From an uncultured bacterium (GTDB taxonomy: Bacteria > Omnitrophota > Omnitrophia > Omnitrophales > Abzuiibacteriaceae), in contig CAYLXA010000010.1 of NCBI GenBank assembly GCA_964387845.1, forward strand, positions 37,059 through 101,058: a stretch of 64,000 bases of DNA, read 5' to 3'. Made by a program: the position numbers and the translations under genes. Below the pieces are notes generated by a model, which made no database searches, was not told the origin of the DNA, and worked only from the letters and a program-made list of their open reading frames with translations. Below, piece by piece: positions 9,179 to 46,202 of the stretch (the stretch's first letter is position 1; every line of letters begins with the position of its first letter).

Positions 9179-9188
9179 GCGAAGTTTC

Positions 9189-11904: not shown

Positions 11905-12474
11905 TCAAATATCCTTCGACGCGGTATAAATAATGCAGGTGATGACAACCAGCGCCGAAAGAACAAGGCGAGCGACAACATGCTGATTAAACGCATACCC
12001 ATGATGATCAAATTCCAATTGAACGGACTTTCCGTCAAACTGGATGGTCTCCGGTTTTTCCGATTCCATTTCAACTTCAATGCCGCCGGCCAAAACACCG
12101 TAATAAGTTTTGCCGATTCCGGTTCCTACAATTACCGCGATTAAAATAGCACCAAAGACCCAGGCATTAAGCACTTGCTTGCGCCGAACCTGGCGGGCTT
12201 GTTCTTCCAAAATCGCTTTGTCGGCCAGCGCGCGCGATGCAGCGGCGGTTTTGATGGCTTTTTCGCGGAACCAATTGACGTCTTCCAGCGTTTTGGCTTC
12301 GTCAACAAACTTAATAAATTCTTCAAGCCGCTCCCTCTTCACTTCGTCCGTTTCAGTTTCGACAAACCGGTGGAATGCGGCTTTGGCTTCGGGAAGCGCG
12401 ATTTCCTCTTGGGATTGGAACTCTTTTTTCCGGTCTCGGGCAAGCTTCTCTATATCAGAATCTTCGGGGTCCAT
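11905..12474 (-). CDS. hypothetical protein with N-terminal coiled coil and TM segments
   Basis: 189-aa ORF; charged N-terminal half followed by hydrophobic helices. Confidence 0.45.
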   Translation of the reverse strand: MDPEDSDIEKLARDRKKEFQSQEEIALPEAKAAFHRFVETETDEVKRERLEEFIKFVDEAKTLEDVNWFREKAIKTAAASRALADKAILEEQARQVRRKQVLNAWVFGAILIAVIVGTGIGKTYYGVLAGGIEVEMESEKPETIQFDGKSVQLEFDHHGYAFNQHVVARLVLSALVVITCIIYTASKDI

Positions 12475-12488
12475 ACACTACTTATCGG

Positions 12489-14634: not shown

Positions 14635-14643
14635 GGGGGAATG

Positions 14644-15378: not shown

Positions 15379-15430
15379 TTTTTGTGACTCGTGGTTCGCG
15401 AATCGTGAATCGATGCACGAATCACTAAGT

Positions 15431-16552: not shown

Positions 16553-16609
16553 GCTACAAGCTGTACAATCTTCAAAAACTTGAAGCCTGAAGCTTGTAGC
16601 CTGTGGCGA
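16553..16609. repeat. intergenic imperfect palindrome (REP-like) between leuB stop and asd start, sharing a core with the 48075-48150 element
   Basis: caagctacaagctgcatgctacaagctg ... cttcaaaaacttgaag ... cagcttgtagcc inverted arms. Confidence 0.5.
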
Positions 16610-17683
16610 TTATTTTGTTATTCGTTCACAAACCAATTTTCCCATTTCCTGACAACCAACCAGTTTCATTCCTTCACTAAAAATATCTGCGGTGCGGTAA
16701 CCGTCGTCTAAAACTTTCTTCACAGCCGCTTCAACGTGAAGTGCCAAATCATTCAAGTCAAATGAATATCGGAGCATCATCGCGCACGACAAAATCGTCG
16801 CGAGCGGATTGGCTTTGTCTTTACCGGCAATATCCGGCGCAGAGCCATGAACCGGCTCATAAAGCGCGTGATGATCACCGATGCTGGCTGACGCGAGCAT
16901 GCCGATTGAGCCGGTGAGCATGGATGCTTCGTCGCTCAAAATATCGCCGAAGAGATTCGTGGTCACGATCACGTCGAATTGTTTGGGATCGCGGACAAGC
17001 TGCATCGCGCAATTGTCCACATACATGTGTGACAACTGGACATCCGGAAACCGTTTTCCGAGCTGCATGACGACTTTGCGCCAAAGTGCGCTTGATTCTA
17101 AAACGTTTGCTTTGTCGACGGAACAAACTTTGCGTTTGCGTTTGCGCGCAAGCTGAAATGCTCTTTGCGCAATCCGTTCAATCTCCGAAGTGGAATATAC
17201 TTCGGTATTGAATCCTTTTTCCGAACCGTCTGAATTTTTCTCGATTCCTTTCGGCTTTCCAAAATAAATGCCGCCTGTGAGTTCGCGCACAACCATGATA
17301 TCGGTTCCGCGCACCACATCCGGCTTCAAAGTAGAAGCAGAAATCAGGCTGTCGTAAATCATCGCCGGGCGGAGATTGGCGTAAAGCCCGAGTCCGCTGC
17401 GGATACCGAGAAGGCCCGCTTCGGGCTTTTTATCGTGTTCCAAATTTTCCCATTTAGGGCCGCCGACCGCACCGAGCAAAACGGCGTCTAAATCTTTCGC
17501 CACTTTTAAAGTTTCATCCGGCAAAGGAATTCCAAACTGATCGATCGCAACACCGCCGATCAAAGCTTCCTTGAATTCGAAGTTCAGGTGAAACGTTGAA
17601 GCCACATGCTTCAAAATTTTCACGCCAACTTGTACGACTTCTGGCCCGATTCCATCGCCCGGGAGAGCAAGCACTTTATACAT
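16610..17683 (-). CDS. leuB: 3-isopropylmalate dehydrogenase (isocitrate/isopropylmalate dehydrogenase family)
   Basis: [17 protein letters not shown]-terminus; [25 protein letters not shown] signature. Confidence 0.8.
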
Positions 17684-29065: not shown

Positions 29066-29458
29066 TTAGGCAGATTTTCTGGTCGTCGCGAATCCTAAAA
29101 ACCGGGAAACCAAAGTCGTTTCCACAGAAAATGCGGAATTGCGCCGAAGAGATTCAAAACTAGCGTCGGCCTTGGCTTGTACGTCACGATTCAGCATATC
29201 GCTCAAAGCCGGCAGCATATCGTCCGCACGCGCCTCAACCGAAATTGATTTTGTCCGAATCTCCTCAATTTCATACTTCGCTGATTCAGGCTGTAATGCT
29301 TCGGTTGTAATATTGATGCCGGCCGAATGAGAAGCGCCCGGCAAAATAATCTGCGGATTGAATACTTCGGCTTCGTGAATCGGCTGAGCAAACATAGGCT
29401 GGCCGAATATAAAGACACATACCAATAAAATCTTAAGGAACTTAATCGGGTTTTTCAT
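29066..29458 (-). CDS. small secreted hypothetical protein
   Basis: Signal-peptide-like N-terminus (MKNPIKFLKILLVCVFIFGQPMFA). Confidence 0.4.
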   Translation of the reverse strand: MKNPIKFLKILLVCVFIFGQPMFAQPIHEAEVFNPQIILPGASHSAGINITTEALQPESAKYEIEEIRTKSISVEARADDMLPALSDMLNRDVQAKADASFESLRRNSAFSVETTLVSRFLGFATTRKSA

Positions 29459-29910
29459 CTTCTCTTATCCTTTCTGGTTCTGCCCGAGCTCACTTCAAGC
29501 AAAGGCATAAGAGAAGAAACGGTGGGATTTATTTCAGCGTCTCTTTCAAAATGCCCCTCTGAGAATCTTTCGAAAAAGAATCTCTCAGAAGGGCTTTGAA
29601 AGAGTCCTTCTAAGAAGATTGGCAACCCAGCCTTCCTCACCCGTCCGTGTAGGAACCGTGGCTTTGCGTCACCGGATTACTCCCCCGCTAAACTGAATAG
29701 CGAGTCCGCCAAGATTTGTGGCGGAAGTTTTGCCTTTTTCAGACCTCCTAAAATGTGAGCTTTCAACGAGCAACTTGCTTAATAAAAAGGTGCCCCATGA
29801 CTTTTTTAATGTCAAGAGTAACACCCCTCTTTTTTCAATACAAAAGGGAGTTATTTTAACGCTTAAATATGTATGTAAGTCATTAATATATAATGACTTA
29901 CATCAATTTA

Positions 29911-32900
29911 TTAGGAGAATAATGCGGGTTGTCTGCGAGTCGACCACTGAGGAAAAAGAGGAGATAACAGTTGGCTGACATCAATTCCTAAGCCGGCAAA
30001 TCCTGAAAAAACAGGCGGAACCGGCGGAATATTGGGAAAAAGGAGGTTTCCGTTAAAAAACACATTTCCGGAAGGCTCATTGGGGCCGCCTAAATCGAAA
30101 TTCAGGTCGGTATTCGGATTCACTAATTCACCATTAATATCACCGTCGATGCTAATCGATGTACCGCCGCCATCTTGGCCGCCTGCGATTGTGGTCAGAA
30201 CCGCACCGTTATTAATATCAACATCGATGCCGTCACCGGTGACGCCAATCGTACCGCCTGCTGTTATACTGGAATCGGATCCGGCCGTAATATTATTCGC
30301 TGCACCGTTTCCATCCAGGACATTTCCGGTTGTGGCTTCAATCATCACACTGCCATTGCCGGCATTAATGGTTCCTAAAATAAGGTCACCTGTCGGCGTA
30401 ATCACGCAAATATCGCCATTCGCAACGGATGAATTGGCATTGATCGTCGCCCCATCGGCCTCCATGATGAAAATACCGCCGGTTTGGCTGATCGCGTTGA
30501 TCGTATTCGCTGCGGTATTCATTTTATTGAGAAGTGTTCCGACCGAATTTCCAAAAAATTCAATATTGCTGCTCGTAATCACCGTTCCGATATTTCCGTC
30601 ATCAAAAACATTGCCTGCTTGCGCCGTAAAACTCGCTGAGTTGGTCGTGTTCACACTGCCGACGGTGATATCGCCCGCCGTTGTGGTCAATGAAAAATCA
30701 GAATAACCGTTGATGCCTGTTGCCGAAGAAGCGCCGCCTGCTGTTGCGGTGACTGAGCCATTGGTCAAAAAGTTAGCGCCCGTAAAATTCATCCCGTTCA
30801 AACTGTTCATCGCAATGTTGCCATTCGCCGTGCTTTGAGCCACAAATGAATTCACATTAAAATCAATGTCGCCGTTTGCAAGTGCAGAACCAATATTCCC
30901 AAGCGCCGTCAAGGAAAGTGAATTTGCATTAATCCGCGTTGATTGCACAAAATCATCCACGATATTTCCGCCGGATGCGGTCAATGTTACATCGCCGTTG
31001 CCGGCATTGATACTTTGCAACGCCGCATCACCCAGAACCATATCGCCTGTGGCGCTATTAATATTGATATCGCCATTCGCAGCCGAAGAATCCAAACCTT
31101 GAATGGTGACCGCGTCTAATTCATCAATAAAAATACCGCCGTTATTTGCAGTAATGCTGAGCGTAGCTGCTGCTGTGTTAATTTTGTTAGCAAGTGTCCC
31201 AACGGCATCTCCGATTAATGTGATGAGCCCGCCTGTGATTCTGGTAGCGTTGTTGGCGTCATCCACCAAATTTCCAGCTGCCGCCGAAAGCACCACATCA
31301 CCCAAGCCTGCGTTGATGGTTCCAATGGTTAAATTGCCGAGTGTTGAAACAACATCAATCGTGCCATTTGCAGCCGAAGAATTCATATTGTTCAAAGTTG
31401 CGCCATTGGATTCACGCAAGAAAATGCCGCCGGCGTTTGCGGTTGCGTTCAATGTTGCTGCCGTCGTATTAATTCTCGCCGCCAAAGTTCCGATTGCATT
31501 TCCGACAAGCGTAATCACGTTGCCGCTTAAATTAGAAGTAGCATCTACCAGATTTCCCGCGAGCGCTGTTAAACCGATATTTCCGGCTGTCGTGATAGTG
31601 CCAAGATTTAGATCGCCGGTTGTGGACGTCACATTGATATCGCCGGAACCCGTTGTGGCACCGACGGTCGCTCCGTTGGATTCTGTGACGTTGATTTCGC
31701 CTGTGCCGGTTCCTGTGATGTTAAGAGTTGTGGCCGTGGTATTAATCGCAGCGCCTGATTGACCCACGTCACCGTCCGCGCCGCCTGCAATTAAGTTCAC
31801 AATCACACCTGCAACACTGGAAGCCACGCCACCCAATAAGTCACCTGCCAAAGCTGTTAAAGTTACATTGCCGGTTGTGGAGATGGTTCCAAGCGTTAAA
31901 TCACCGGTGGTTGTTCTGACATCAATATTGCCGGAACCTGTCGTGGCGCCGACTGTCGCTCCGTTCGACTCTGTTACGAAAATATCGCCTGTGCCCGCAC
32001 CGGTTAAGTTTAACGTGCCGGCCGTGGTCATAATTCGTCTCGTAGAAGTTCCGACATCACCGTCCGCGCCGCCCGCTGCGAGATTGACTGTAGTGCCGGT
32101 TACGGATGAATCCGCGTTCGTGTCGGTCACATCGCCATTTGAAGCAGCTAACGTCACTGCATTCGTAGCGCTCACGGTCCCGACTTCGAGATCACCCGAA
32201 GTGGTTGTCATGGAAAAATTTGTGTAGCCGGTTGCGCCGGTAATGGACGAAGCACCCTCGGTTGTAACTGTCACAGACCCGGCGGTAACAAAATCAGCGC
32301 CCGTTAAAGTCGCGCCGCCGCCTGCGATTCTCGCAAAAATATCACCATTACCAGAACTTGTCAGCGCTCCGACATTAGTAGTGGATGTGATATCCACGTC
32401 GCCATTCGCAGCTGATGAACCGATATTACTGGACGCGGTCATGTTCACAGTTGAAGCAGAAACCGCCGTCGCTTGATTTCCGTCATCTAAAATGTGCCCG
32501 GCGTTGGCATTAACCGTCACCGTGTTTTCGGCATTCACAGTGCCAAGCGTCACATTACCGGTGGTTGCCGTTAAATCGATATTGTTTGTGCCGGTCCCGG
32601 TGGCAGAAGCATTGACGACCGTTAAATCACCGGCAGCCGTAATAATAATTGAATCATTTACGGCAGATGCGTTGTTAACCGTCAGCGCCTGATCATTGGT
32701 AACGATAATTCGCCCATTGGCAGCAGCTGCATTCAGGGAGTTTGCACTAAGGTCAATATCGCGATTGCCGGTCGTTTGTCCGATATCCACCGCCGCATTG
32801 AGCGTTACTTCGTCGCCCGTAATTCGGGTTGCATCATCGTTATCATCCAGAATCGATCCGTTGGTTGAAGTAACCGACACATCCCCGTTTCCGGCATCCA

Positions 32901-35169
32901 CAGCCCGGACTGTAATATTGCCGCGGCCTGAAATGGCAATATCGCCATCGTTCGTTATGACAGATGAGTTATTCGCCATCGAGAAATTGCCGCTCGAATC
33001 ATTATCGCTGTTGGCCGTCAGTGTAATATTTCCGCCTCCTGTACTCTGAACGATGGTATTTGAGGAAATCGAAAGATTGTTGCCTGCCAGCAAATTAATG
33101 CTGCCGGCAACGGATTGCACATCACTGTTGACGTTGAGATTGTTGAATGCGTTCGCGGTGACGCCGCCGTTGCCCTGGACCAGTCCGGCTAATGTAATAT
33201 TGTTAAAACTGGTAGACGCTCCGGTTCCGATCGTGATTTGACTATTCGCGCCGGTTGCAGATACATTGCGAATTGTGGTATTACCGGAACCGTAAATTTC
33301 AACATCGCCGCCGGCCAAAATTCCGGAATTGTTCGCCATAGTGAATGTTCCGCTTCCGTCATTGTTTGCATCCGCGTTCAGCAAAACATTTCCGTTGGTG
33401 GATTCAATTTCATAAGCAACGCTTCCGTTGGAATTGTTGCTGATTGAAATTCCGTCATTGGCCATGACTGTAATCCCGGCTGCAGCTGATAAATAAGGAA
33501 CCGTGAGATTTCCGCCGTTAATGGTCACGCTGTCGAAAGCCCGGTTAGTTCCGACCCGGATTTGTCCGTTTGTCGAGCGCACTTCGCGTAAAGTTGCAGA
33601 AGCTGCGGATGACCCGTCAATGGTGATATCACCAAACGCCAAAAGCTTCGAACCATTGTTCATCGTAAAAACGCCGTCATCGTTTGTATTGTTCGCATCG
33701 GTGATAACGGTAATAGTTCCGCCAGTTGACTGGATTGTGACGTTGTTATTAATGATGATGCCGCCGGCTGAGGTAAGCAAAATGTCGCCAGCAATAATTT
33801 GATTGGTAGAGATGGTAATATTTGCGTCCGGATCAAAAATAACGAGCCCGCCCGTGAAGCCATCCGCCACAACTTGCAGAACGGTACCGCCGACATGTAA
33901 ATCGCCGCCGAAAGCCGACAGGTCGAGCGTCCCGCCGTTTCCGGTAATACCGCCCGAGATATCAATCAAAGCATCCTGCTGAAAATCAGTACTGCCATAA
34001 AGGGAATTGATATAGATATTGCCGCCTTGCGACAATTCGCCGATTCCGCGGGATGAAACGAGAGAGCCGGAAAGTAAATAAGTTCCGTACAGTGAAACAA
34101 TATCAATGTTGCCGGCCGTGCCGTAATCCAACGCATTGGCTGAAATAATTCCAGAATGCTCAATCGTGTCGGACAAAATATTGATTGAGCCTCCGTTCGG
34201 ATTTTCTACCGAACCATCCGCAATAATGCTTCCGGAATTCACAATCGCACCGTTGGCAACCAATTCGATAACGCCATTTTGATTTACAACGCTCGTTGCT
34301 TCAATGATGCCGGTGTTGTTTACAAGATAAGTAAAAAGATCATTAACTGCCTCAGCTTGTAAAATAATTTTTCCGCCGTTTGCGCGAATCACGCCGGAAT
34401 TCAGAATCGCATCTTCGGCATCGGTAATGGTAGAAGCCAGCTGCTCATCGACAACCAGATTGATCAAGCCCTGCGGATCAAACGTGAGCGTCAGTTTTTC
34501 GCCGCTTGCCATGACAATGGAACCAAGGTCCGCAATCACGCTGCCGGAATTAGCGACCGATCCGCCCAAAAGCACCACAAAACCGCCCGGTTGAGCCGTG
34601 ATGGTTCCTTGATTGACCACACTGCCCGCCTGCGAACCGTTTTCAAAAATTAAACTGCCGGCCAGAAAATTTGAATTTGAAAGCGTGAGACTTGATGCAA
34701 TAAAACCCGCAACATTGATGCTGGCGCCTGCGCCGATATGAATGCCCGCCGGATTGACGAGAAAAACATAACCGTTTGAGAAAATGGAGCCAAAAATATT
34801 GGACGTCGCTCCGCTGATATCATTATTGAGGATAGAACCGCCCGCAATGGAGAAAAGAAATGAAAATGTTTGCCCGATGTCGATATTAAAACCGTTCCAA
34901 TTGAGAATCGTGCCGTCCTGAACGTCCGTAAAAGAATATCCGGAACCGGTATCCGTGCAGCCGCCGTATCCACCGGTTACAACCGTAACGCCGTCGCAAG
35001 CAAAGGCAGAAAAAACCTGAAGGAAAACAAACAGGAAAATAGCGAGAAACGCAACGGGCTTGGAGCGCTTTCGTATTGTAATCAGCTTTCCTTGTCTCGG
35101 AAAATCCATTAACACTCTTTCCTCTTGGATTTCCCTGAGTTCGGAAGCTGACTGCCATGACGGTTGCAA
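29911..35169 (-). CDS. two-partner-secretion exoprotein TpsA-2 (filamentous haemagglutinin family, 1752 aa)
   Basis: N-terminal TPS/haemagglutination-activity domain (NWNGFNIDIGQTFSF...NPAGIHIGAGASINVAGFIASSL), followed by long Gly/Asn/Thr/Ala-rich beta-helical repeats. Confidence 0.8.
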   Translation of the reverse strand: MQPSWQSASELREIQEERVLMDFPRQGKLITIRKRSKPVAFLAIFLFVFLQVFSAFACDGVTVVTGGYGGCTDTGSGYSFTDVQDGTILNWNGFNIDIGQTFSFLFSIAGGSILNNDISGATSNIFGSIFSNGYVFLVNPAGIHIGAGASINVAGFIASSLTLSNSNFLAGSLIFENGSQAGSVVNQGTITAQPGGFVVLLGGSVANSGSVIADLGSIVMASGEKLTLTFDPQGLINLVVDEQLASTITDAEDAILNSGVIRANGGKIILQAEAVNDLFTYLVNNTGIIEATSVVNQNGVIELVANGAIVNSGSIIADGSVENPNGGSINILSDTIEHSGIISANALDYGTAGNIDIVSLYGTYLLSGSLVSSRGIGELSQGGNIYINSLYGSTDFQQDALIDISGGITGNGGTLDLSAFGGDLHVGGTVLQVVADGFTGGLVIFDPDANITISTNQIIAGDILLTSAGGIIINNNVTIQSTGGTITVITDANNTNDDGVFTMNNGSKLLAFGDITIDGSSAASATLREVRSTNGQIRVGTNRAFDSVTINGGNLTVPYLSAAAGITVMANDGISISNNSNGSVAYEIESTNGNVLLNADANNDGSGTFTMANNSGILAGGDVEIYGSGNTTIRNVSATGANSQITIGTGASTSFNNITLAGLVQGNGGVTANAFNNLNVNSDVQSVAGSINLLAGNNLSISSNTIVQSTGGGNITLTANSDNDSSGNFSMANNSSVITNDGDIAISGRGNITVRAVDAGNGDVSVTSTNGSILDDNDDATRITGDEVTLNAAVDIGQTTGNRDIDLSANSLNAAAANGRIIVTNDQALTVNNASAVNDSIIITAAGDLTVVNASATGTGTNNIDLTATTGNVTLGTVNAENTVTVNANAGHILDDGNQATAVSASTVNMTASSNIGSSAANGDVDITSTTNVGALTSSGNGDIFARIAGGGATLTGADFVTAGSVTVTTEGASSITGATGYTNFSMTTTSGDLEVGTVSATNAVTLAASNGDVTDTNADSSVTGTTVNLAAGGADGDVGTSTRRIMTTAGTLNLTGAGTGDIFVTESNGATVGATTGSGNIDVRTTTGDLTLGTISTTGNVTLTALAGDLLGGVASSVAGVIVNLIAGGADGDVGQSGAAINTTATTLNITGTGTGEINVTESNGATVGATTGSGDINVTSTTGDLNLGTITTAGNIGLTALAGNLVDATSNLSGNVITLVGNAIGTLAARINTTAATLNATANAGGIFLRESNGATLNNMNSSAANGTIDVVSTLGNLTIGTINAGLGDVVLSAAAGNLVDDANNATRITGGLITLIGDAVGTLANKINTAAATLSITANNGGIFIDELDAVTIQGLDSSAANGDININSATGDMVLGDAALQSINAGNGDVTLTASGGNIVDDFVQSTRINANSLSLTALGNIGSALANGDIDFNVNSFVAQSTANGNIAMNSLNGMNFTGANFLTNGSVTATAGGASSATGINGYSDFSLTTTAGDITVGSVNTTNSASFTAQAGNVFDDGNIGTVITSSNIEFFGNSVGTLLNKMNTAANTINAISQTGGIFIMEADGATINANSSVANGDICVITPTGDLILGTINAGNGSVMIEATTGNVLDGNGAANNITAGSDSSITAGGTIGVTGDGIDVDINNGAVLTTIAGGQDGGGTSISIDGDINGELVNPNTDLNFDLGGPNEPSGNVFFNGNLLFPNIPPVPPVFSGFAGLGIDVSQLLSPLFPQWSTRRQPALFS

Positions 35170-35432
35170 CCGTTTTAGGCTCTTGAGTTTTGCCTCATTC
35201 TACGCTCAGTCGCTTACGCGCTGGGCTTCGAAGAGCTCTACGAAGCCAAGCCGCGAAGGACTTGGCGAAGTAGAGGCCTTACTCTTTCGAGTAATTTGCC
35301 TCCGCCATACAGCGTAGCGGATCCGCCACGCTTTGTGGCGGACTTTCGTTCAGAGATAAGATGATAAAACTAAAAAAAATTTTACCATATTGAGAAGATA
35401 TTGCAAAAATTAAGATAAAAAACAGATAAAAC

Positions 35433-37136
35433 TTACCGCTTTGAATCAGTTAAGGCGGATTTTAATTCAGATTGGGCTTTTAAGCATTTGTCGCCCACGC
35501 AAGACGGCCAAACAGGCCTATCCGATCGCGAAAGGCTTAAATGATCAAGGTAAAATGTTCCCAATTTCGGGTTTGTACTTCTTTCTAACTTCAAAGTAAA
35601 CTCGGGCGATTCGCCGGGCTGCAGCTCTCCTGAAACCGGTACCTCATAAAGCTGCCATGCAGTGGCAACATTTTTCGCAATCACAGGATGAGCGACCAGC
35701 GTTGCGCCCCTCCATTCAACTTTTAATTCCTTCGGGAAAGGCTGGGATGATCCCTTTAAATAGAACTTTAAGGTTTTGAAATCATTCGGATCAATGGCCG
35801 CAATTTCAAAAGTTTTCGGATTGATGCTGACCGTTACTTGGCAAACCGGTTTCTGTTTCGACTCAAGGTCGTAATCAATTTTTAAAGATTTTCCCCGAGG
35901 ATCATTAAGCGCATCGCCACGGCTGAAAGCATAAGAGCATTCGCCATATGACTTAACCGAATAAAACTCGCTTGGCCGGCTGTTCGAAATCTTCTGAGGA
36001 GAAATGTTTTGATTAAAATCAGCCAAAACGAAATCTTCTATTAATTCGCAAGTTTGCGAACAATCTCCGGCAAATTCAGCCCGGTATTGACAAATCTCGT
36101 CGCCAATACCCAAACATTCATCTTGGTACAAACACTCTGTTCCGTCATCGCAAAACGAGCCGTTGTCGCATTCTTCCCCTTCATCTTCCACATTATCGCC
36201 GCAGCAAGATGGCTGCCCGGACGGATCGCAATCGCTGCAATCGGGCAAGCAAGTTTGTGCACAAATATAACCCTCACTGCTTGCGCAACCGATATCTCCG
36301 TTCACATCGCAAACTTCATCTCCGGTGATTTGACCATCTCCGCAGAAATTGGACGTCACACATTCACAGCCCGCACATACGTCCCCGCCTGTGCAATCAC
36401 CGTCGGCTTCACATTCTTCACCCGGATCGACAATTCCGTTTCCGCAAATTCCCGTCGGAACACAGCTTCCTGACGGATTGCATGCTTGGTTAGGACCGCA
36501 TTGAATGCAAATCGGATTTGCGCCGCATTGAGTGGCAGTATTTGTACACCCAAAACTTTCATTGCAAATATCTTCCGTACACGAAATCCCGTCATCACAA
36601 AGCGTATGATTCGGCGCATATTGGCATCCGTTCACCGGGTCGCAGGAATCTACCGTGCAGGCAAATGTGTCATCACAATCGAGAGGCATGCCTGCGGTGC
36701 AGGTACCGGCCTGGCAGGCTTCATCACCGTTGCAAACCGTGCCGTCGGCGCAGGAAGTGCCGTTTGAAACGGGCGCATGCGTACAGTTACCAGCGTTACA
36801 CGCATCCGTTGTGCATGGATTGTTGTCATCACAGCCACCGGGACATGGCGCGGCGCATACGTTCGCCCAAAATTGAATATCGAGCCCGTTAACGGCGCCG
36901 TCTACATTTAGATCGGCTGAACAAAATTCTTGCGGTGACGGAGGCGGCGGAAACCCGAGTAAAATGTTGATGAAAAGATTGAAATCGTCCTGGCCTTCGG
37001 CGGGTTCGATTGTGCCGTCATTATCGATATCGCAGAGTGTGCAAGCGACGCCGGCATGAGCAGGAAGAGAGCATGAAAATAGAACTGTAAAGAAAAACGT
37101 GGAAATGATTAAAAGAAGCTTAGACTTGCGAATCAC
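35433..37136 (-). CDS. secreted dockerin-like plus cysteine-rich-repeat protein
   Basis: Signal peptide; two dockerin-type Ca-binding repeats (DIDNDGTIEPAEGQDDFNLFINILLG; DLNVDGAVNGLDIQFWANV); then many C-x-D/N-x-N-x-C-T-x-D-x-C repeats resembling the Myxococcus cysteine-rich repeat. Confidence 0.6.
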   Translation of the reverse strand: MIRKSKLLLIISTFFFTVLFSCSLPAHAGVACTLCDIDNDGTIEPAEGQDDFNLFINILLGFPPPPSPQEFCSADLNVDGAVNGLDIQFWANVCAAPCPGGCDDNNPCTTDACNAGNCTHAPVSNGTSCADGTVCNGDEACQAGTCTAGMPLDCDDTFACTVDSCDPVNGCQYAPNHTLCDDGISCTEDICNESFGCTNTATQCGANPICIQCGPNQACNPSGSCVPTGICGNGIVDPGEECEADGDCTGGDVCAGCECVTSNFCGDGQITGDEVCDVNGDIGCASSEGYICAQTCLPDCSDCDPSGQPSCCGDNVEDEGEECDNGSFCDDGTECLYQDECLGIGDEICQYRAEFAGDCSQTCELIEDFVLADFNQNISPQKISNSRPSEFYSVKSYGECSYAFSRGDALNDPRGKSLKIDYDLESKQKPVCQVTVSINPKTFEIAAIDPNDFKTLKFYLKGSSQPFPKELKVEWRGATLVAHPVIAKNVATAWQLYEVPVSGELQPGESPEFTLKLERSTNPKLGTFYLDHLSLSRSDRPVWPSCVGDKCLKAQSELKSALTDSKR

Positions 37137-37406
37137 TACTGTGAGATTTCCCTTCAGAAATGACGTTAAGCGGTATTATAGCTAAAATATTAAGCAATTT
37201 CAAATGATTTTAGCTATTTGTGTGAGTTTAGGTGTTGATTAGTATTGGATTTCATCTAAAAAGTGAGGGGGGATTAACCAACGAAGAGAAACTTGATGCC
37301 CTGCTTACAATCAGCGCTCGGGTTGATACGGGCGGCAAAGATAATACTTTGCGCGCCCGAATCTCCTGAGTTCCTATTCTTTTTTCAAACCAGTCTCTCA
37401 AATTAA

Positions 37407-40367
37407 TTAGAAGATTCCGAGAGACGGGCCGTGTCCTTGCTGTCCTGTTGCGGGCAAAACAAACAAAGCATTCAACAGATCAGTTGGTGTAATACCCGCC
37501 GCTAATAATTGAGCTAACGTTGTAAGGCCGCCTGTAGCGGTTGTAGTCACAACAACTGCATCGATCGGGAAAAGCTTAATACCGTTGAAGAAAACGGTTC
37601 CGGGAGGCGTTGTCAAGACATCCGGATCGCCAAAATTAAGATTGGCACTAGGGTCTTCAACTTCGCCATTGATAACACCTTCTAAATTAATCGAGGTATC
37701 ATCAGCATCCGTACCGCCTGCGCGGACAGTTAGCGTTGCGTCATTTGTAATGTTGACATCGATTCCGTCAGCGGTAACGCCGATTGTACCGGCGGCTTCT
37801 AAGGTCGAATCCGCTCCAGCTACCACATTAACCGCAGCTCCATTTGCATCCAAAATACTGCCGGTTAACGCATTGATAAATACCGAACCCGCCGTAGAAA
37901 TCAAGCCAAGCAGCCAGTCACCGGTTGTAGATGTAACATTGATGTTGCCGGAATCTGTTATTGCATTCAGGTTCGCTCCATCTGCCTCTACGATATTGAC
38001 TTCACCGGTTCCAGTACCTGTAATGTTGAGCGTATCGGCTGTCGTGTTAATAGCAGCGCCAGCCTGTCCGACATCTCCATCCGCACCACCTGCAATTAAA
38101 TTCACGATAGTACCCGTCACACTCGAAGCAACACCGCCCAAAAGGTCGCCTGCAAGCGCCATAAGCGTAACATTGCCCGTTGCCGCAATTGTGCCTAACG
38201 TCCAATCACCTGTTGTGGTAGTGGCATTAATATCGTTTGCAGCTGTTGCATCCAATATCGCACCATTCGATTCCGTAACAAAGATTGATCCCAATGTTGA
38301 AACAAGGTTCAAAGTGCTAGCCATTGTATTAATCATCAAATCGCCTAGCCCCCCAACATTTCCATTTGCTGTCAGAATCACGGTGCTGGCTGAGATCAAA
38401 GACCCTGCGGTGCCTAAAATGCTGCCGCCGAAGGCATTCAATTCAATATGATTGGCCAACGCATAACCGATCAGCAAATCACCGGTAATAACATTGCCCA
38501 AGATGCTGCCGGGAGCTTCTGCATTCAAGATAACGCTGTCTAATTCATTAAAGATGATGGAGCCGGTGTTCACTATGAAGTAAAGCACATCGGCAGCCGT
38601 ATTGATGATTGCATCACCCACGCCGCCGATATCATTGCCGGCCGATAGAATCACGGTGCTGGCTGAGATCAAAGACCCTGCGGTGCCTAAAATGCTGCCG
38701 CCGAAGGCCGCTAACTCAACTGTTCCATTTCCCGCGTTCATTGTGCCGACGTTAATGTTTCCAGAATTTGACAAGACTCCAATCATTCCATTATTTGAGG
38801 ACGTATCAATGTTCGTGATAGTCGCGTTATTTGTAGTAATGAACACATTGCCGCCGCTCACAATATCGCTACCGGCAGCTTGGACAAAATCTCCTGAGTT
38901 GTCGGCATCAACGTCCGTATTGATATTCAGAACACTGCCAGTGTCCGCTGTAATATCTGCATTGACCGTAACGCCTTCATTTGCCGTAATGGCAACATTG
39001 CCAAAAACCTGCAGGTCGCTCAATAATGAAACCCCGCCATCGGCAAAAATACTGGAGCCATCATTCATAACAAATGAACCTGCGCCGCTGCTATCGGCAT
39101 CTGCCTGAAACGCTGCGCTTCCGCCTGTCACATTGACACTTGCACCAGCATTAAAAATAAGGTCGTTATTAGCAAAAAAGTTTTGATCTCCGGCAAAATT
39201 ATTAACACCGTCAAAAATAATGTCGTCACCGGCGCCTAATTCAAAATCGCCTCCGCCGGAGCCTGTGCGAGCATGCACATCTGACCGCAGCCCACGGACA
39301 GAAATTGACCCGTTGTCTAAATAGATGTTATTCGCAAAAATTCCGCCATAACCGGCAAGCCCGCCTTCCAAGGCATCTGCCAGAATACTGCCGGAATGCG
39401 CAACAGTTTGCCCTTCAATGCGGAGATAGCCAGCATCTGCATTTTCAACGCTGCCGCTCACATTCAAAACTCCCGAATTATGAACAGCGCCACCATTACC
39501 AATAAGCTCGATCACACCGTTTCTAACAACCACGCTGACGGCTTCGATAATGCCTGTGTTATTGACAAGCTGAGTAAAAATATTTCCCACAGTCTCGGCC
39601 CGCAACAGGACTTTTCCGCCATCGGCTTTAATGAGACCTGCGTTAGCAACCGCGACTTCGCTTTCATTATTAATGGTTGAAACAAGCGCTTCAGGAATAG
39701 AGAGATTGATGAGGCCGTTCGGATCAAATGTAATCGTCGCAGTTTCACCGCTGGCAAGAACCACAGACCCTAATTCAGCGACAATGCTTCCCATATTGGC
39801 TACGGAGCTGCCCAAGAGGACAACAAAACCGCCCGGCTGAGCCACAATATGGCCTTCATTAATAACACTTCCGGCTTGAGAACCATTTTCGAAGGTGTAA
39901 TTTCCGGAGAGGAAGTTTGCTGTAGAAATACTAAGTGTTGAGGCAACCAGGCCGGCCACATCGATATTGGCCATTGACCCTATGTTAATGCCGGCTGGAT
40001 TAACGATAAATACAAAGCCGTTTGAGAATAAATTTCCGAATATATTGGAAGCTACACCGCCGGTCACGTTATTTAAAACCGAACCGCCGGCAATATTAAA
40101 CCAAAAGTTAAAGGTTTGTCCCAAATCAATATTGAATTGATCCCAATTAAAAACCGTTCCATCTTGAAGCCCGTTAAATGTACAACCCGAAGCATCGCAG
40201 CTATAGCTATCATAACCACCCGCTTCAACCTCCGGCGGCACAACATCGTCCGCATACAAAGGAATTACTTGAAAACAAAAAAGGGCAAATGAAAGGACAA
40301 GGGAAAGAACTTTGAAATATTTGGAAACCCGAATGGAGTTAAGCGTTACAACTTTTGGAAGCTGCAT
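37407..40367 (-). CDS. two-partner-secretion exoprotein TpsA-1 (filamentous haemagglutinin family, 986 aa)
   Basis: TPS domain NWDQFNIDLGQTFNFWFNIAGGSVLNN...NPAGINIGSMANIDVAGLVASTL; beta-helical repeats; a C-terminal block near-identical to TpsA-2. Confidence 0.8.
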   Translation of the reverse strand: MQLPKVVTLNSIRVSKYFKVLSLVLSFALFCFQVIPLYADDVVPPEVEAGGYDSYSCDASGCTFNGLQDGTVFNWDQFNIDLGQTFNFWFNIAGGSVLNNVTGGVASNIFGNLFSNGFVFIVNPAGINIGSMANIDVAGLVASTLSISTANFLSGNYTFENGSQAGSVINEGHIVAQPGGFVVLLGSSVANMGSIVAELGSVVLASGETATITFDPNGLINLSIPEALVSTINNESEVAVANAGLIKADGGKVLLRAETVGNIFTQLVNNTGIIEAVSVVVRNGVIELIGNGGAVHNSGVLNVSGSVENADAGYLRIEGQTVAHSGSILADALEGGLAGYGGIFANNIYLDNGSISVRGLRSDVHARTGSGGGDFELGAGDDIIFDGVNNFAGDQNFFANNDLIFNAGASVNVTGGSAAFQADADSSGAGSFVMNDGSSIFADGGVSLLSDLQVFGNVAITANEGVTVNADITADTGSVLNINTDVDADNSGDFVQAAGSDIVSGGNVFITTNNATITNIDTSSNNGMIGVLSNSGNINVGTMNAGNGTVELAAFGGSILGTAGSLISASTVILSAGNDIGGVGDAIINTAADVLYFIVNTGSIIFNELDSVILNAEAPGSILGNVITGDLLIGYALANHIELNAFGGSILGTAGSLISASTVILTANGNVGGLGDLMINTMASTLNLVSTLGSIFVTESNGAILDATAANDINATTTTGDWTLGTIAATGNVTLMALAGDLLGGVASSVTGTIVNLIAGGADGDVGQAGAAINTTADTLNITGTGTGEVNIVEADGANLNAITDSGNINVTSTTGDWLLGLISTAGSVFINALTGSILDANGAAVNVVAGADSTLEAAGTIGVTADGIDVNITNDATLTVRAGGTDADDTSINLEGVINGEVEDPSANLNFGDPDVLTTPPGTVFFNGIKLFPIDAVVVTTTATGGLTTLAQLLAAGITPTDLLNALFVLPATGQQGHGPSLGIF

Positions 40368-40640
40368 GGAACACCTCTATCTTTAAATTGGTTTTCCCTG
40401 ATTCGGGAGCTGATGATCTGAATGAAAATGAAAATTTCGATTGCAGACTCTTGAGCTTTGCTTCTCACCTACTTGACATTGATCAATTTGGCAAGCGCCA
40501 TTTCGTCAGAGATAGGTTGAGCATATCATTTTGAATTATTGTGTCAACGCTTTTTTCGGTCAATTTTGAACAATATTTGGCTTGCGTGCTAATTTAGGCC
40601 GAAAGAGTCCCAAACCGCTCCCGCGGCTAAAAGCTGGAAG

Positions 40641-42368
40641 CTAATAATTTACCTGAAGACCGAAATGAATACGGCTCGCACTGCCTTCTGATGATTTTCC
40701 GCCAACCGGAATACCCCAATCGATACGGCCTTGCAAATTGCGGGCAATGTTCACTCGAATACCGCCTCCCACGCTCGTCATACGCTGACTTGAATCTTCA
40801 TTCTCAAACGGATCAATCACAAATGCTTTTCCAAAATCAACAAACGCAACTCCGCGAACGATATCTCGGATTGCCATTTTTGTGATTGGGCATTTTAAAT
40901 CTTTGGGAATGAAATACGGAGGAACGCGGACTTCAAGAGAGCCTTGAAATCCGTAATCGCCGAGATATTCGCCTTCCGGATATCCGCGGACAGTGTCATA
41001 TCCGCCTATGCGGAATTGTTGAGCCGGTATCAAACGGTGCGGTGTCAATTGAAAACTGGTTCGGCCAACCGCCTGAATTCCGTTCCAAATATTCTGAAGG
41101 CGGCCGATAGAAGCGTTGTATTGCCAAAAATAGCCGTCGGCTTCACGCCTGCTGGCATTCGGGTCATTGTTATCCAAACCACCCATGAAACCCCCAAAAG
41201 CGACTTGGACGTTATTTGAAAAAATGCTCCTGCCCCATCGATCGTTTTCAATAAAGTTAGGGCCAAAACGAAAAACACGTAAATCATCTTTGGCAACCGG
41301 AATGCCCTGCACTAAAGTTCGAATGCGCTTGTAATCAAAGCCGGTTGTAAATTCTCCCTGCACATATTTGGAATGGAGAAAAGGCATAATTAACGTGGGT
41401 CCGAACACAACCGCGCGGCCGGCAGCCGCCAGCGGTTTTAGATCCTTGCCCAACTCAACTTCAACACGGCTAAAGTCAAATGTCAAAATATCGCCGCGCG
41501 CATTTAAAGGAACCTGATAACTGCTTGAAACACCGATAAAATCTCTCCGCTCCGAAATTTCAACTCTGCTGGACAACTGGTCATCAAATCCCAGCAAATT
41601 TGTCGCAGTGGCCGTTGCAGATTGCCGAAAACGCCCGGTCGAAACCGTTCCTAAATTATTAAAACCATATCCGGCGTGAAACGGAAACTTTTCTTCTACT
41701 TTGAGAATAATATCCGTTGTTTCGGGCTTTTCTCCCGGCTCCAGCACAACCCGCACAATTCTGTCCGGATTTGCATTTAGTGCCGTCAAATATCTTTCAA
41801 GATTTTGATAGCGTAAAATGTCGCCTTCACGAACATTAAAACGCCTTCTGACCAAACTCTCACGCGTGTATTTAAGGCCTTCGATTTTAATCAAACCGAC
41901 TTTTGCTTCATGAATTTGAATGCGCACTTGCCCGTCTTCGAGTTTTTGCGGCGGAACAATCGCTCGAGTCGTGACATAGCCGCGAGTGCGGTAATGGGCC
42001 GTAATGTCTAAAGCAAGCTCTTTTAATTTTTGAAGATTGGTTGATTGATTTTCATAGGGACGCTTAAACTCATCGATAACGTCTTGAGGGAAAACGGTTC
42101 CGCCATCAACGCGGATAGACGTAATCGGAAATTCGGTATCCGGAAGGCCGGCCCCTTCTTCTTCAACGTATTTATTCTCAATTTCGGGCAGCGCAATTTC
42201 TTCCAAACGCTTGTACTGCGGCTGTTCGCGGAATTTTTCAGCAAGCACGCCCGCCTGTTCCGAAGCCGGAACAGATTCATCGGCAGCATAAACAGAGGTT
42301 GTTAGAACACCAAGAAGAAGAAAATAAAATATTGCAAATTTAATTAATGAATTTCCGCGGGCTGACAC
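40641..42368 (-). CDS. TpsB outer-membrane transporter (ShlB/FhaC/HecB family)
   Basis: Signal peptide, POTRA-like region, C-terminal beta-barrel ending in aromatic residue (…RIHFGLQVNY); lies immediately upstream of TpsA-1 on the same strand. Confidence 0.75.
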   Translation of the reverse strand: MSARGNSLIKFAIFYFLLLGVLTTSVYAADESVPASEQAGVLAEKFREQPQYKRLEEIALPEIENKYVEEEGAGLPDTEFPITSIRVDGGTVFPQDVIDEFKRPYENQSTNLQKLKELALDITAHYRTRGYVTTRAIVPPQKLEDGQVRIQIHEAKVGLIKIEGLKYTRESLVRRRFNVREGDILRYQNLERYLTALNANPDRIVRVVLEPGEKPETTDIILKVEEKFPFHAGYGFNNLGTVSTGRFRQSATATATNLLGFDDQLSSRVEISERRDFIGVSSSYQVPLNARGDILTFDFSRVEVELGKDLKPLAAAGRAVVFGPTLIMPFLHSKYVQGEFTTGFDYKRIRTLVQGIPVAKDDLRVFRFGPNFIENDRWGRSIFSNNVQVAFGGFMGGLDNNDPNASRREADGYFWQYNASIGRLQNIWNGIQAVGRTSFQLTPHRLIPAQQFRIGGYDTVRGYPEGEYLGDYGFQGSLEVRVPPYFIPKDLKCPITKMAIRDIVRGVAFVDFGKAFVIDPFENEDSSQRMTSVGGGIRVNIARNLQGRIDWGIPVGGKSSEGSASRIHFGLQVNY

Positions 42369-42804: not shown

Positions 42805-42948
42805 TTATTTCACGCCGATTCGACGGTAGAGCAGCAATACAGCGCCGATTACAAAGAACGGCATGTAGCTAACCAGCGTTGTTCCAAAATGCAGCCCTAC
42901 GATAATCCCCACCACAATACCTAGTGTTAAATGTTCGTCGATCTTCAT
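42805..42948 (-). CDS. small hydrophobic membrane protein (47 aa), absent from the ORF track because it is under 60 aa
   Basis: ATG at 42948-42946 preceded by AAGGGGGTGAGCAAA; MKIDEHLTLGIVVGIIVGLHFGTTLVSYMPFFVIGAVLLLYRRIGVK; followed by an intrinsic terminator. Confidence 0.5.
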   Translation of the reverse strand: MKIDEHLTLGIVVGIIVGLHFGTTLVSYMPFFVIGAVLLLYRRIGVK

Positions 42949-43782: not shown

Positions 43783-44625
43783 ATGGCTCAGGGAAAATTA
43801 CAAACAAAAGCAGCGCAAGGTATTTGGTTCTGGTTTAAGTGGATCTTAGCTTCTATCGGAAGCTTCGTGATTTCCATCTTTTTCTGGGATTGGCTGCTCA
43901 TTCAACGCCTCGGCAGCAATTTCAAAGACCCCAAAATAGCCATTGCCTGGATCGCTGCCGTTTTCGGCACTTGGTTTGTTATTCTCATTTTGCTCATGGC
44001 TAAAAAGGAAAAAGTCATGGGCCATATGGATAATGACGATGAAGCCACAATCGGCTGGTGGCTGATTTGGATCGGATTTACGATCGGCTCCTTCTTTCTT
44101 GCAGTGTGGTTTTGGACCCCTTTCATTAAAGAACATTTCGGCAGCATCAAAGAATCCGGCACTTCCCTAATTTGGATTTTCGCCGTATTCGGCACCTGGC
44201 TGATCGCGCTCGTCCCGCTTATGATTTTCATGTACAAGAAAGTGGACCAAGCTTACGAAAAGGCGCGGATCCGGAAAGAGAAAACAGGCGAGCAAAAGCC
44301 GGGTGGACAATACCGGGACCCCGTAAAAATAAAAGCGATTTTAATAGAGCCTTCAAAGCGCGCGCTGCCGAAATCAATCGCAGCGCAATTGAAAGATGTG
44401 CCGCTCACGATTAAAAACGGCCATTTGGTAACCGCTGTTCTGAAGAACGGCAAACGAATTGAAAACGTGTTTGTGGCCGACCGGCACGAGGTTTTGGGAG
44501 TTTACGATCAAACTGAAATGCCGTTTGAAGTGAAAGACATCGCAACGCTCGAACCTACCGATTTGACAAACCCGCCCGATTTTACTCAAAAAGCTTGGCT
44601 TCGCTTGGATGGAAACGCGGCTTAA
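43783..44625 (+). CDS. membrane protein with duplicated Trp-rich TM hairpins plus a C-terminal soluble domain
   Basis: 280-aa ORF; two similar WxWxxFTIGSFF hydrophobic blocks. Confidence 0.45.
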   Translation: MAQGKLQTKAAQGIWFWFKWILASIGSFVISIFFWDWLLIQRLGSNFKDPKIAIAWIAAVFGTWFVILILLMAKKEKVMGHMDNDDEATIGWWLIWIGFTIGSFFLAVWFWTPFIKEHFGSIKESGTSLIWIFAVFGTWLIALVPLMIFMYKKVDQAYEKARIRKEKTGEQKPGGQYRDPVKIKAILIEPSKRALPKSIAAQLKDVPLTIKNGHLVTAVLKNGKRIENVFVADRHEVLGVYDQTEMPFEVKDIATLEPTDLTNPPDFTQKAWLRLDGNAA

Positions 44626-45020: not shown

Positions 45021-46202
45021 TTATCGAATGATCGTCAAACTCGACGTATAGCCGTGAACGTGATTTCTATTATCGACCGGGCCGAATTCTCCATTAGCAA
45101 AAAACCCCGAGAGCGGGATCGGCCCCCGCATCGCCTGCACCATTTTAGCGTCATGATCCAATTCGCCATACAAACCTTTTCCCCGCCCGCAGCAACTGAC
45201 TAAAATCGCGCCTTCGGAAGTTTTGGATTTCCCCTGCTGTTTTAATTTTCCGAGAAGGATTTTTAAATCTTCTTTCGACGTTGCTGCGTCGCGAAGCTGA
45301 AATTGCAGAGTCTGGCCTGTTTCCAAAAGCGCACCGATAATCAAAGCACCGCTCGTTTCATCGATTCCCATAATATTGCGGATTAAGAAATCTCCGCGTT
45401 CAAAGTTGTACCGATTCTCATCCATCACAAGACCGACAAACAGCGAATGCTGCGCGAGCTGCTGATCATCGGGTAGCAGTGATTTAAATAAATCGCTTAA
45501 AACCTGGAGCGCCGGTTTTCCGGCCAATTCATAAAGGATATTGTTTTCAGATTTGGTGATAATCAGCGGCTCTCCGATCGGCCGGCAGCCTTGGGAAACC
45601 ACGATCTCAAAATGGATATCGCCGGATAAAATAACACCCACTGCACCATCGGAAGCGATATCTGCATTTAAAGAAATCCAATTTTTTGCGCCTACCATTG
45701 CTCCGCTTGCTAATCCGCCCACCAAAGGCAAATTCTTGTAACCTTCGTTGAAAAGTGTCAATAATTTACCGACGTCACAAGTCTGCGGATCCGCTAAGCA
45801 AATAAAATGAGGGTTGCTGGCGGGAACAATGTCGAAATATTCGACCAAATCCTTTCCCGATTCAAACGCTTCAAGTTGGTTTGCGGAAAGAGAAAACGGC
45901 ATTACTTTGGCGCCGTCCAGATGCATGGCCATCACGGAAATGGCGGGTTCCATTTCGATTTCTTTTTTATCGCCTATGACACCACTGGAATTGCATGCGA
46001 TCAAGCACTCCGCGGACGTCAGGCTTTTAAACATATCTAAGAGCGCTTTGGGTTCTGCGTGATAATGTTCGGAGAGAAACAAAACCGCAAGATCACAGCT
46101 CTTGCCTTTGAGATCGGTATTAACTTTGGAAGCCAAGAAACGGATGGCGTTGGAGCCATCCGTTTCTTGTGTAAATGCAGAAGAAAATAATTTTTTTCCC
46201 AT
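45021..46202 (-). CDS. FIST-domain sensory protein
   Basis: 393 aa; N- and C-terminal FIST-like halves (from memory of similar sequences). Confidence 0.5.
   Translation of the reverse strand: MGKKLFSSAFTQETDGSNAIRFLASKVNTDLKGKSCDLAVLFLSEHYHAEPKALLDMFKSLTSAECLIACNSSGVIGDKKEIEMEPAISVMAMHLDGAKVMPFSLSANQLEAFESGKDLVEYFDIVPASNPHFICLADPQTCDVGKLLTLFNEGYKNLPLVGGLASGAMVGAKNWISLNADIASDGAVGVILSGDIHFEIVVSQGCRPIGEPLIITKSENNILYELAGKPALQVLSDLFKSLLPDDQQLAQHSLFVGLVMDENRYNFERGDFLIRNIMGIDETSGALIIGALLETGQTLQFQLRDAATSKEDLKILLGKLKQQGKSKTSEGAILVSCCGRGKGLYGELDHDAKMVQAMRGPIPLSGFFANGEFGPVDNRNHVHGYTSSLTIIR

Follow-up and report, generated by a model that had tools for sequence, protein, structure and literature searches.

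An Adhesin-Like Two-Partner Secretion Locus of an Omnitrophota Bacterium, with a Probable Ancestral Link to c-di-GMP Riboswitches

Introduction

How do two large exported proteins and a cysteine-rich secreted protein come to stand beside a single transporter gene, and what might control their production? The question is raised by a cluster of minus-strand genes in a 64,000-nucleotide (nt) stretch of contig CAYLXA010000010.1, hereafter called the window, meaning the whole stretch of DNA that was analysed. The cluster carries tpsB, which encodes the transporter of a two-partner secretion (TPS, or type Vb) system, two genes for TPS-domain exoproteins, tpsA-1 and tpsA-2, and between these a gene for a dockerin-like, cysteine-rich protein, called here the middle gene. 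For comparison we used five related contigs that hold the same locus (L001, L002, L003, L006 and L007).

Our reading, to which we assign a probability of roughly 0.6, is that the cluster is a type Vb secretion locus on the chromosome of an aerobic Omnitrophota bacterium, that it has been inherited vertically, and that it has exoproteins that are adhesin-like and an ancestral link to cyclic di-guanosine monophosphate (c-di-GMP). The core of the locus is an ordinary type Vb system. What is added to it is an evolutionary layering and a connection to riboswitches, the latter being absent from a preliminary description of this DNA and contributed by the present analysis. Omnitrophota are uncultured, mostly ultra-small bacteria that are thought to live attached to other cells or at their expense (PMC10066038), and the means by which they attach are largely guesswork from giant open reading frames (ORFs) (PMC10066038). 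The locus offers a compact candidate for attachment, in which a conserved TPS fibre is paired with c-di-GMP aptamers in the leaders of its genes. If this is true, a second messenger known for the decision to attach or to swim would be tied directly to the translation of an exported adhesin.

Results and Discussion

A Type Vb Secretion Locus with an Ordinary Core

The four minus-strand ORFs listed in the preliminary description are all present at the positions it gave, and its recognition of a two-partner secretion locus was right, since TpsB carries the domains of such a transporter and both TpsA proteins carry a TPS domain. The genes of the locus, in the order in which they are read, are as follows.

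40641 to 42368, minus strand: tpsB, 575 amino acids (aa), comprising a signal peptide, a pair of POTRA domains and a barrel of the ShlB/FhaC type
37407 to 40367, minus strand: tpsA-1, 986 aa, with its TPS domain at aa 72 to 302 (nt 39462 to 40154)
35433 to 37136, minus strand: the middle gene, 567 aa, with a signal peptide at aa 1 to 28
29911 to 35109, minus strand: tpsA-2, 1732 aa, with its TPS domain at nt 34228 to 34944
29066 to 29458, minus strand: the gene for a small secreted protein of 130 aa that has a signal peptide and belongs to no known family

TpsB is an FhaC/ShlB-type Omp85 transporter. It matches the Pfam models POTRA_2 (78.8 bits), ShlB (71.7 bits), POTRA (41.7 bits) and Omp85 (33.8 bits), and thus combines an Omp85-type barrel with two POTRA domains. 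The third hallmark of such transporters, the loop-6 (V/I)RG(Y/F) motif, is present as VRGY in its translation (…GGYDTVRGYPEGE…). The protein is 66% identical to its L001 orthologue.

Both TpsA proteins have the signal peptide and the NPxG-containing TPS domain of type Vb exoproteins, the motif reading NPAGI in each. The TPS domain model PF05860 scores 77.5 bits on TpsA-1 and 64.4 bits on TpsA-2, and TIGR01901 scores 53.1 and 43.1 bits, respectively. The tpsA-2 gene is real, although not in the form first proposed: its start is the ATG at 35109, giving 1732 aa, rather than the TTG at 35169 (1752 aa), because the L001 orthologue is collinear from residue 21 onward. The stretch between TTG and ATG is instead filled by half of a riboswitch (35140 to 35204; see below). 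TpsA-2 is 76% identical to the L001 TpsA and collinear with it, and is the ancestral cargo of the locus, with a Sec-type export signal and an N-terminal TPS domain followed by a repeat array. In the reading favoured here, TpsB would export both TpsA-1 and TpsA-2, and the two cargo proteins would form beta-helical surface fibres that serve in attachment.

The host can be placed from the cytochrome oxidase subunit COX1 encoded in the window, which is 81 to 85% identical to proteins named from Candidatus Omnitrophica metagenome-assembled genomes (MAGs), and 92% and 86% identical to its counterparts on the contigs L001 and L006. On this evidence the host is an aerobic member of the Omnitrophota. 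In all long contigs the locus lies between the same sets of genes, with MFS, FIST, ferredoxin (Fer4), 280-aa and 47-aa ORFs upstream and hydrolase, PFK, HAD and DAO genes downstream, and it has therefore been inherited vertically.

Within these flanks the gene content differs. L001 has the order tpsB, middle gene, tpsA and a gene for a 132-aa protein; L002 and L003 have tpsB, middle gene and tpsA. The middle gene is absent from both L006 (tpsB, tpsA and a gene for a 130-aa protein) and L007 (tpsB, tpsA), which are the more distant relatives. The small secreted protein is encoded 3′ of tpsA in every contig that reaches beyond tpsA (the window, L001 and L006), and the 130-aa protein has a conserved C-terminal motif (…SFESLRRN..F..E..LVS…). 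Since L006 and L007 have no middle gene and tpsA-1 occurs in the window only, the ancestral unit consisted of tpsB, tpsA and the gene for the small secreted protein. The lectin-like middle gene was then added in a sub-clade, and the second exoprotein gene, tpsA-1, in this genome. Scans of genome contigs with the C-terminal domain of the middle protein and with a TpsB alignment gave no confirmed relative, and a scan of metagenomes for further loci found only the L001 contig again.

Riboswitches in the Leaders of the Locus

The evidence for an ancestral connection to c-di-GMP comes from the gene leaders, which were scanned with Rfam. The models that matched belong to clan CL00126 and are c-di-GMP-I (RF01051, gathering score 35), its GGC variant (59) and c-di-GMP-I-UAU (65.9). 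In the relatives, aptamers lie directly upstream of tpsA in L006 (69 bits), L007 (63.2 bits) and L001 (59.2 bits), all well above the cut-off of 35. Aptamers of the GGC variant lie upstream of the small gene in L006 (14007 to 14090, 63.5 bits) and L001 (17368 to 17452, 60.4 bits). Thus, five aptamers of the relatives exceed the Rfam gathering scores. Another, upstream of tpsB in L001 (7785 to 7860), reaches 56 bits with the c-di-GMP-I-UAU model and falls under its cut-off. Across the six aptamers, compensatory changes are seen at six predicted base pairs, five in P2 and one in P3.

In the window itself, three leaders of the locus hold an aptamer or what is left of one.

29618 to 29744, minus strand: c-di-GMP-I aptamer ahead of the small gene; passes the RF01051 cut-off (42.6 versus 35 bits)
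35140 to 35309, minus strand: split c-di-GMP-I aptamer in the tpsA-2 leader; 27.2 bits (cut-off 35) plus a 5′ half of 15.3 bits
42650 to 42690, minus strand: residual c-di-GMP-I aptamer of the tpsB leader; the 5′ part only (AUGAAAAAGGCAAGCCCAA), recognized by alignment of the leaders

In the first of these, a 54-nt insert, made mostly of a repeated hairpin element (D11), replaces 12 consensus positions at the tip of P2. In the second, a P2 hairpin (GGCAAA-UUACUC-GAAA-GAGUAA, at about 35280 to 35309) is separated by a hairpin-folding insert of about 85 nt from the half that carries J2/3 and P3 (35140 to 35204), and the tpsA-2 start codon follows 30 nt downstream. The same split form is found in the tpsA leader of L002, with two compensatory pairs in P2. 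In the third, about 165 nt present in L001 have been deleted, the aptamer included, and Rfam gives no match in the window between 42369 and 42810, the region of the tpsB leader. No aptamer was found in the window leaders of tpsA-1 and the middle gene.

Between the end of the aptamers upstream of tpsA and the start codon lie about 28 to 30 nt and no terminator, an arrangement that makes translational control the likely mode of regulation. We hypothesize that TpsA translation was originally coupled to c-di-GMP through these leader aptamers. No riboswitches were found at three more distant TPS loci (L010 to L012, two of them from MAGs labelled Omnitrophota) or at L008, and the association is therefore specific to this syntenic family of loci.

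Two elements near the aptamers deserve separate mention. An element of 44 nt that forms hairpins (TCCGCCACAAAGCGTGGCGGA together with another, small hairpin) is present at 29682 to 29725 and at 35299 to 35342 with 77% identity between copies. One copy lies in P2 of the small-gene riboswitch, and the other immediately precedes the tpsA-2 aptamer, where L002 has none; the window holds no further copies. The element looks like a small insertion of the repetitive extragenic palindrome (REP) or miniature inverted-repeat transposable element (MITE) kind. A long, near-perfect hairpin (29539 to 29606, minus strand) stands between the aptamer and the small gene. Its Rfam matches are spurious and microRNA-like only, and it may belong to the expression platform.

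A different arrangement is seen at the more distant, Omnitrophota-labelled locus L011, where a PilZ-domain gene (5080 to 5556) and genes of the GT2 and GH26 families lie directly upstream of tpsA. This may be another route by which c-di-GMP and polysaccharide are joined to a TPS protein.

A Middle Protein That May Be a Partner or a Passenger

Finding a dockerin-type protein within a TPS locus is indeed unusual, as the preliminary description remarked. Its placement between two tpsA genes is peculiar to the window; in relatives the gene stands between tpsB and the single tpsA, or is absent. Downstream of its signal peptide, the middle protein is built from three parts, and the gene has a promoter of its own.

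36855 to 37043 (aa 32 to 94), minus strand: dockerin-like module with a double calcium-binding loop
36042 to 36854 (aa 95 to 365), minus strand: cysteine repeats of the Dicty_CTDC type, followed by CGxG…E.C[DE] repeats
35502 to 36041 (aa 366 to 545), minus strand: beta-sandwich resembling a carbohydrate-binding module (CBM)
37175 to 37203, minus strand: sigma-70-type promoter of the middle gene, TTGAAA-17-TATAAT, an 11/12 match

The signal peptide, the dockerin-like module and the cysteine-rich repeats had all been noted before and are present. Judged by the Pfam threshold that was originally suggested as a test, the dockerin assignment is borderline on the whole protein, where Dockerin_1 (PF00404) scores 22.8 bits versus a cut-off of 22.9, and passes on the isolated module, with 26.3 bits. 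Three of four family members match Dockerin_1 (best E 1.8e-8). A profile of the module searched against the PDB returns almost only type I dockerins, over positions 9 to 59 with both loops included (E 4e-4), and in the module itself the D-x-[DN]-x-D-G…D loop, each time with a helix, occurs twice. The Dicty_CTDC model (PF00526, cut-off 27) reaches 28.1 bits with the whole protein and, in three stretches, 42.2 bits with aa 95 to 227. The label "myxobacterial-type" that had been given to the later repeats did not hold up: aa 228 to 366 have no match in Pfam or NCBIfam (TIGR02232 and PF13948) at E<=1, and the three CG[DN]G…E.C[DE] copies there resemble Myxococcus-type repeats by motif only. Finally, aa 366 to 545 have a beta-sandwich or jelly-roll fold like those of solved CBMs. 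No Pfam (E<=1) or NCBIfam match assigns this domain to a defined CBM family, and among its remote homologues the matches to CBM_11, CBM30 and CIA30 are sub-threshold or marginal.

The earlier suggestion that this protein might be cargo of the system finds no support as regards TpsB: the protein has no TPS domain and is therefore not a canonical TpsB substrate. From its conserved position it is a possible partner of the adhesin. We envisage a Sec-exported, disulfide-rich, calcium-binding and lectin-like protein that may cooperate with the fibre, through either its dockerin-like module or its CBM-like domain.

The main rival to this reading treats the middle gene as a passenger with no functional tie to the system, a free-standing gene for a secreted lectin-like protein that landed in a long intergenic region with its own promoter and was inherited there. 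The gene has no riboswitch. Its sigma-70-type promoter is conserved in sequence and position, with a 34-nt match of 94% to L002 and a 16-nt match of 94% to L001 that cover the -10 element and the leader sequence after it. At the other end of the gene, the stop codon is overlapped by a terminator-like hairpin with a U-run. The promoter and the hairpin suggest that the middle gene is a transcription unit of its own. The CBM-like domain is found in 89 representative proteins, of which many are small and stand-alone. Two further facts favour the passenger and at the same time count against our own reading: the sister lineages L006 and L007 lack the gene, which is hence dispensable for the system, and a protein with the same dockerin-like, cysteine-rich and CBM-like architecture (P0370) is encoded beside unrelated genes with no TPS neighbours. 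On the other side, the gene is found in three lineages and always between tpsB and the tpsA riboswitch, its three full-length orthologues are 49 to 68% identical with every cysteine kept, and these three are the only full-length family members found among 5.8 billion proteins, all of them within this locus. We judge the passenger explanation unlikely, and plausible nonetheless.

Further observations weigh against the reading that we favour. An AlphaFold2 model of the dockerin-like module, built from a three-sequence alignment, is too poor for use, with a predicted local distance difference test score of 53 and a predicted template-modelling score of 0.29. Among the ORFs scanned in the 64-kb window, none has a Pfam match to cohesin. 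A Sec-exported middle protein would still need a way across the outer membrane. In this genome the tpsA-2 aptamer is interrupted and below threshold (27.2 versus 35 bits) and the tpsB aptamer is gone, and control by c-di-GMP may have been weakened or lost here. More generally, secretion, adhesion, sugar binding and c-di-GMP binding are predictions from the sequence.

A far more elaborate version of the adhesin reading would make the locus a "three-partner" adhesion module. In this version the middle protein docks in a calcium-dependent manner on the TpsA-2 fibre (and on that of TpsA-1) through a non-canonical cohesin-like surface, and provides a separate, exchangeable lectin head for glycans of host or prey. 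The c-di-GMP riboswitches would turn on production of the fibre and of the small protein, and the aptamers with inserts would be structurally new but functional variants of the GEMM-I class. We regard this version as a long shot.

Probable Adhesins Rather Than Toxins

A separate question is whether the TpsA proteins act in attachment at all, or are instead cytolysins of the ShlA/HpmA kind or other effectors directed against a host or prey cell. TpsB does match the ShlB family model, and Omnitrophota have been proposed to be host-dependent or predatory (PMC10066038). However, the ShlB model covers all types of TpsB, and beyond the TPS domain both TpsA proteins consist of low-complexity repeats rich in G, T, N and A, with no match to any haemolysin or toxin family. 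Indeed, neither TpsA has a toxin, enzyme or other domain beyond TPS in Pfam or NCBIfam. The closest named homologues are annotated as "filamentous hemagglutinin N-terminal domain" proteins, a resemblance that runs through the TPS domain only. With these observations in hand, we consider a cytolysin or other effector quite improbable.

The contact-dependent inhibition systems of the CdiBAI subclass were also considered and rejected. No VENN or pre-toxin domain is found with Pfam or NCBIfam, and the C-termini are conserved among orthologues. At the position where a CdiBAI locus would have its immunity gene, downstream of tpsA-2, the window, L001 and L006 all encode a protein with a signal peptide.

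Two Old Relatives Built from a Common Repeat Unit

The C-terminal half of both TpsA proteins and of their relatives is a tandem array of units of about 96 aa, found with a hidden Markov model iterated from the block that the two proteins share. TpsA-1 has three to four units at aa 552 to 831 (nt 37875 to 38714) and a C-terminal tail of its own. TpsA-2 has about nine units at aa 766 to 1668 (nt 30166 to 32874), the one shared with TpsA-1 lying at nt 31573 to 31860. The units have no match to Fil_haemagg_2 or to any other Pfam family.

A sliding-window comparison of the two proteins finds three shared segments: the TPS domain (aa 60 to 290 of TpsA-1 with 76 to 305 of TpsA-2), the shared block (711 to 820 with 1080 to 1190) and a C-terminal cap (821 to 900 with 1600 to 1680, about 60% aa identity). 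The TPS domains, which had been described as near-identical, share only 56% of aa over the first 340 or so residues, 66% in the core, and 65% of nt. The "near-identical C-terminal block" is real but small, amounting to 87% aa identity over 70 residues, 76% over one 96-aa unit and 71% at the nt level. This block corresponds to one subtype of repeat unit (…GGADGDVGQxGAAINTTAxTLNxTGTGTGE…). At the nt level, blastn aligns only two regions of the genes, the TPS domain at 65% and 316 nt at 71%.

Its codons reveal the age of the block. Within the 70-aa core, identity falls to 34% at third codon positions, and of the 61 identical residues 39 are encoded by different codons; the similarity is therefore old and has been kept by selection on the protein. 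Moreover, the TpsA-1 unit is as close to two units of the L001 TpsA (74 to 75%) as to that of TpsA-2 in the window (76%), and thus there is no excess of similarity within the genome. On both grounds, recent gene conversion between TpsA-1 and TpsA-2 was rejected.

TpsA-1 itself is an intact second TPS-domain protein that diverged anciently and occurs in this genome only. Its gene has no counterpart in L001, L002, L006 or L007 and sits between tpsB and the promoter of the middle gene. Its nearest relatives among the 5.8 billion proteins are the TpsA proteins of L006, L002 and L007, at 37 to 50% identity. In the TPS domain its identity to each of the relatives is 56 to 62%, compared with 75 to 79% among the TpsA-2 orthologues. 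As an outgroup in this domain, TpsA-1 is therefore an old paralogue or xenologue, and for the same reason a recent tandem duplication was rejected as its origin.

How, then, do these proteins change in length? The L001 TpsA (12000 to 17192) has a tandem duplication of two units, the unit pairs being 85% and 92% identical, and the L002 TpsA (2304 to 5990) lacks about 500 residues of the array. A direct repeat of 73 nt in tpsA-1 (38374 to 38446 and 38647 to 38719, 93% identity) has copies 273 nt, or one unit, apart and encodes FGGSILGTAGSLISASTVIL twice. This repeat indicates that some duplication or homogenisation within the gene is recent, unlike the old divergence of the paralogues. We infer that length varies by gain and loss of repeat units, not by exchange of cassettes.

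The cassette-like diversification that had been proposed thus gives way to a picture in which the two proteins differ mainly in the number of their units (three to four versus about nine) and the synonymous sites of the shared block are near saturation. Cassette exchange or gene conversion, in the manner of CdiA C-termini or of antigenic variation, might find encouragement in the one unit that is far better kept between the paralogues than its surroundings and in the recent 73-nt repeat, but the codon differences, the equal similarity to the L001 units, the two poorly matching blastn regions (65 to 71%), the lack of VENN or pre-toxin domains and of an immunity-like gene, and the conserved C-termini leave it largely refuted and scarcely credible.

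Neighbouring Sequences

Some smaller features lie at the edges of the tpsA genes and beyond the locus. Ahead of tpsA-1, a pattern search matches the promoter consensus at two sites.

40520 to 40563, minus strand: promoter-like sites TTGACC-17-AATAAT and TTGACA-16-TATGCT, known by match to the consensus pattern only

Sites of this kind are not commoner in the region than in shuffled sequence. An AT-rich inverted repeat (29862 to 29914, with 24-nt arms and a 5-nt spacer) overlaps the stop codon of tpsA-2 and may be a terminator or a recombination site.

Directly upstream of the tpsB leader lies an ORF for a hydrophobic protein of 47 aa (MKIDEHLTLGIVVGIIVG…; 42805 to 42948, minus strand), followed by a GC-rich hairpin and a T-run. 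It is kept at this position in L001 (47 aa) and L006 (46 aa). Two further genes lie close by on this upstream side. One is a 280-aa ORF (43783 to 44625, plus strand) that has no Pfam match and is syntenic in L001 and L006; the other (45021 to 46202, minus strand) encodes a stand-alone sensor-domain protein with FIST_N and FIST_C domains and is syntenic in L001. FIST domains are frequently coupled to c-di-GMP enzymes; none of the window ORFs scanned has a GGDEF or EAL domain.

At the other end, an open frame of more than 3065 codons (2 to 9196, minus strand) runs off the left end of the window. It begins with a hydrophobic segment at the N-terminus, is mostly helical-looking and has no Pfam match. 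Giant ORFs are a known trait of Omnitrophota. This one has no similarity to the large neighbours of P0370.

Comparison with Known Systems

Closely related genomes here show a TPS system growing by steps, with a lectin-like accessory gene followed by a second exoprotein. Its riboswitches have been split or deleted, or have taken in a small hairpin repeat. The locus as a whole thus offers a natural series for asking which parts are required.

In its core, the locus resembles FhaB/FhaC of Bordetella and other TPS adhesins. As in those systems, a two-POTRA, ShlB-type TpsB is encoded next to an exoprotein in which a TPS domain with NPxG is followed by long repeats of the beta-helix type. It differs in its distinct unit of about 96 aa, its host known from Omnitrophota MAGs, its riboswitch leaders and the extra genes in the locus. 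It is also known that one TpsB can serve several TpsA proteins, as FhaC does for FhaB and FhaS and as is the case for meningococcal TpsA1 and TpsA2. The window likewise has two TPS-domain proteins beside one transporter gene. Unlike those examples, its second TpsA is old and divergent (56 to 62% in the TPS domain) and occurs in one genome only.

Loci with more than two genes have been described for TPS systems, among them hmw1ABC, hxuCBA, cdiBAI(O/C) and bcpAIOB (PMC5422565, section 9). They give a precedent for accessory proteins that modify a TpsA or cooperate with it. However, their additional genes encode a cytoplasmic glycosyltransferase, a TonB-dependent receptor, immunity proteins or a small lipoprotein, and none encodes a secreted protein with dockerin-like, cysteine-rich and CBM-like parts. 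In the literature we found only a general review for TPS together with dockerins, nothing specific for Omnitrophota together with hemagglutinin, and, within limited coverage, no report of c-di-GMP riboswitches before TPS genes.

Dockerins outside cellulosomes are on record (Peer et al., 2009, as cited in PMC10066038), and giant Omnitrophota ORFs with dockerins have been proposed to be adhesins (PMC10066038). Like type I dockerins, the module described here has two segments of calcium loop plus helix and exceeds the Dockerin_1 cut-off when scanned alone. Unlike them, it is flanked and crossed by conserved cysteines, loop 2 of its L001 orthologue is longer by an insertion of 5 residues, and no cohesin partner is known.

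The closest functional analogy for a glycan-oriented TPS adhesin linked to c-di-GMP is CdrA/CdrB of Pseudomonas aeruginosa, a TPS system whose adhesin binds polysaccharide and whose production and retention follow c-di-GMP (PMC2847200; PMC5422565). There, control is exerted through transcription and LapG proteolysis without riboswitches, and the sugar-binding region is part of the TpsA, whereas in the present locus the lectin-like fold resides on a separate protein that is predicted to be Sec-exported. The aptamers, for their part, belong with c-di-GMP-I (GEMM-I, RF01051, with the GGC and UAU variants), matching it over the full length with the P2 hairpin and its GNRA tetraloop, the ACGCAAAG junction and P3, and preceding genes for surface and adhesion functions, as is usual in this class. 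The copies in the window depart from the model by their inserts, 54 nt within P2 in one case and about 85 nt between P2 and J2/3 in the other, and a response to c-di-GMP, expected for the intact aptamers of the relatives, is correspondingly less certain for these altered forms.

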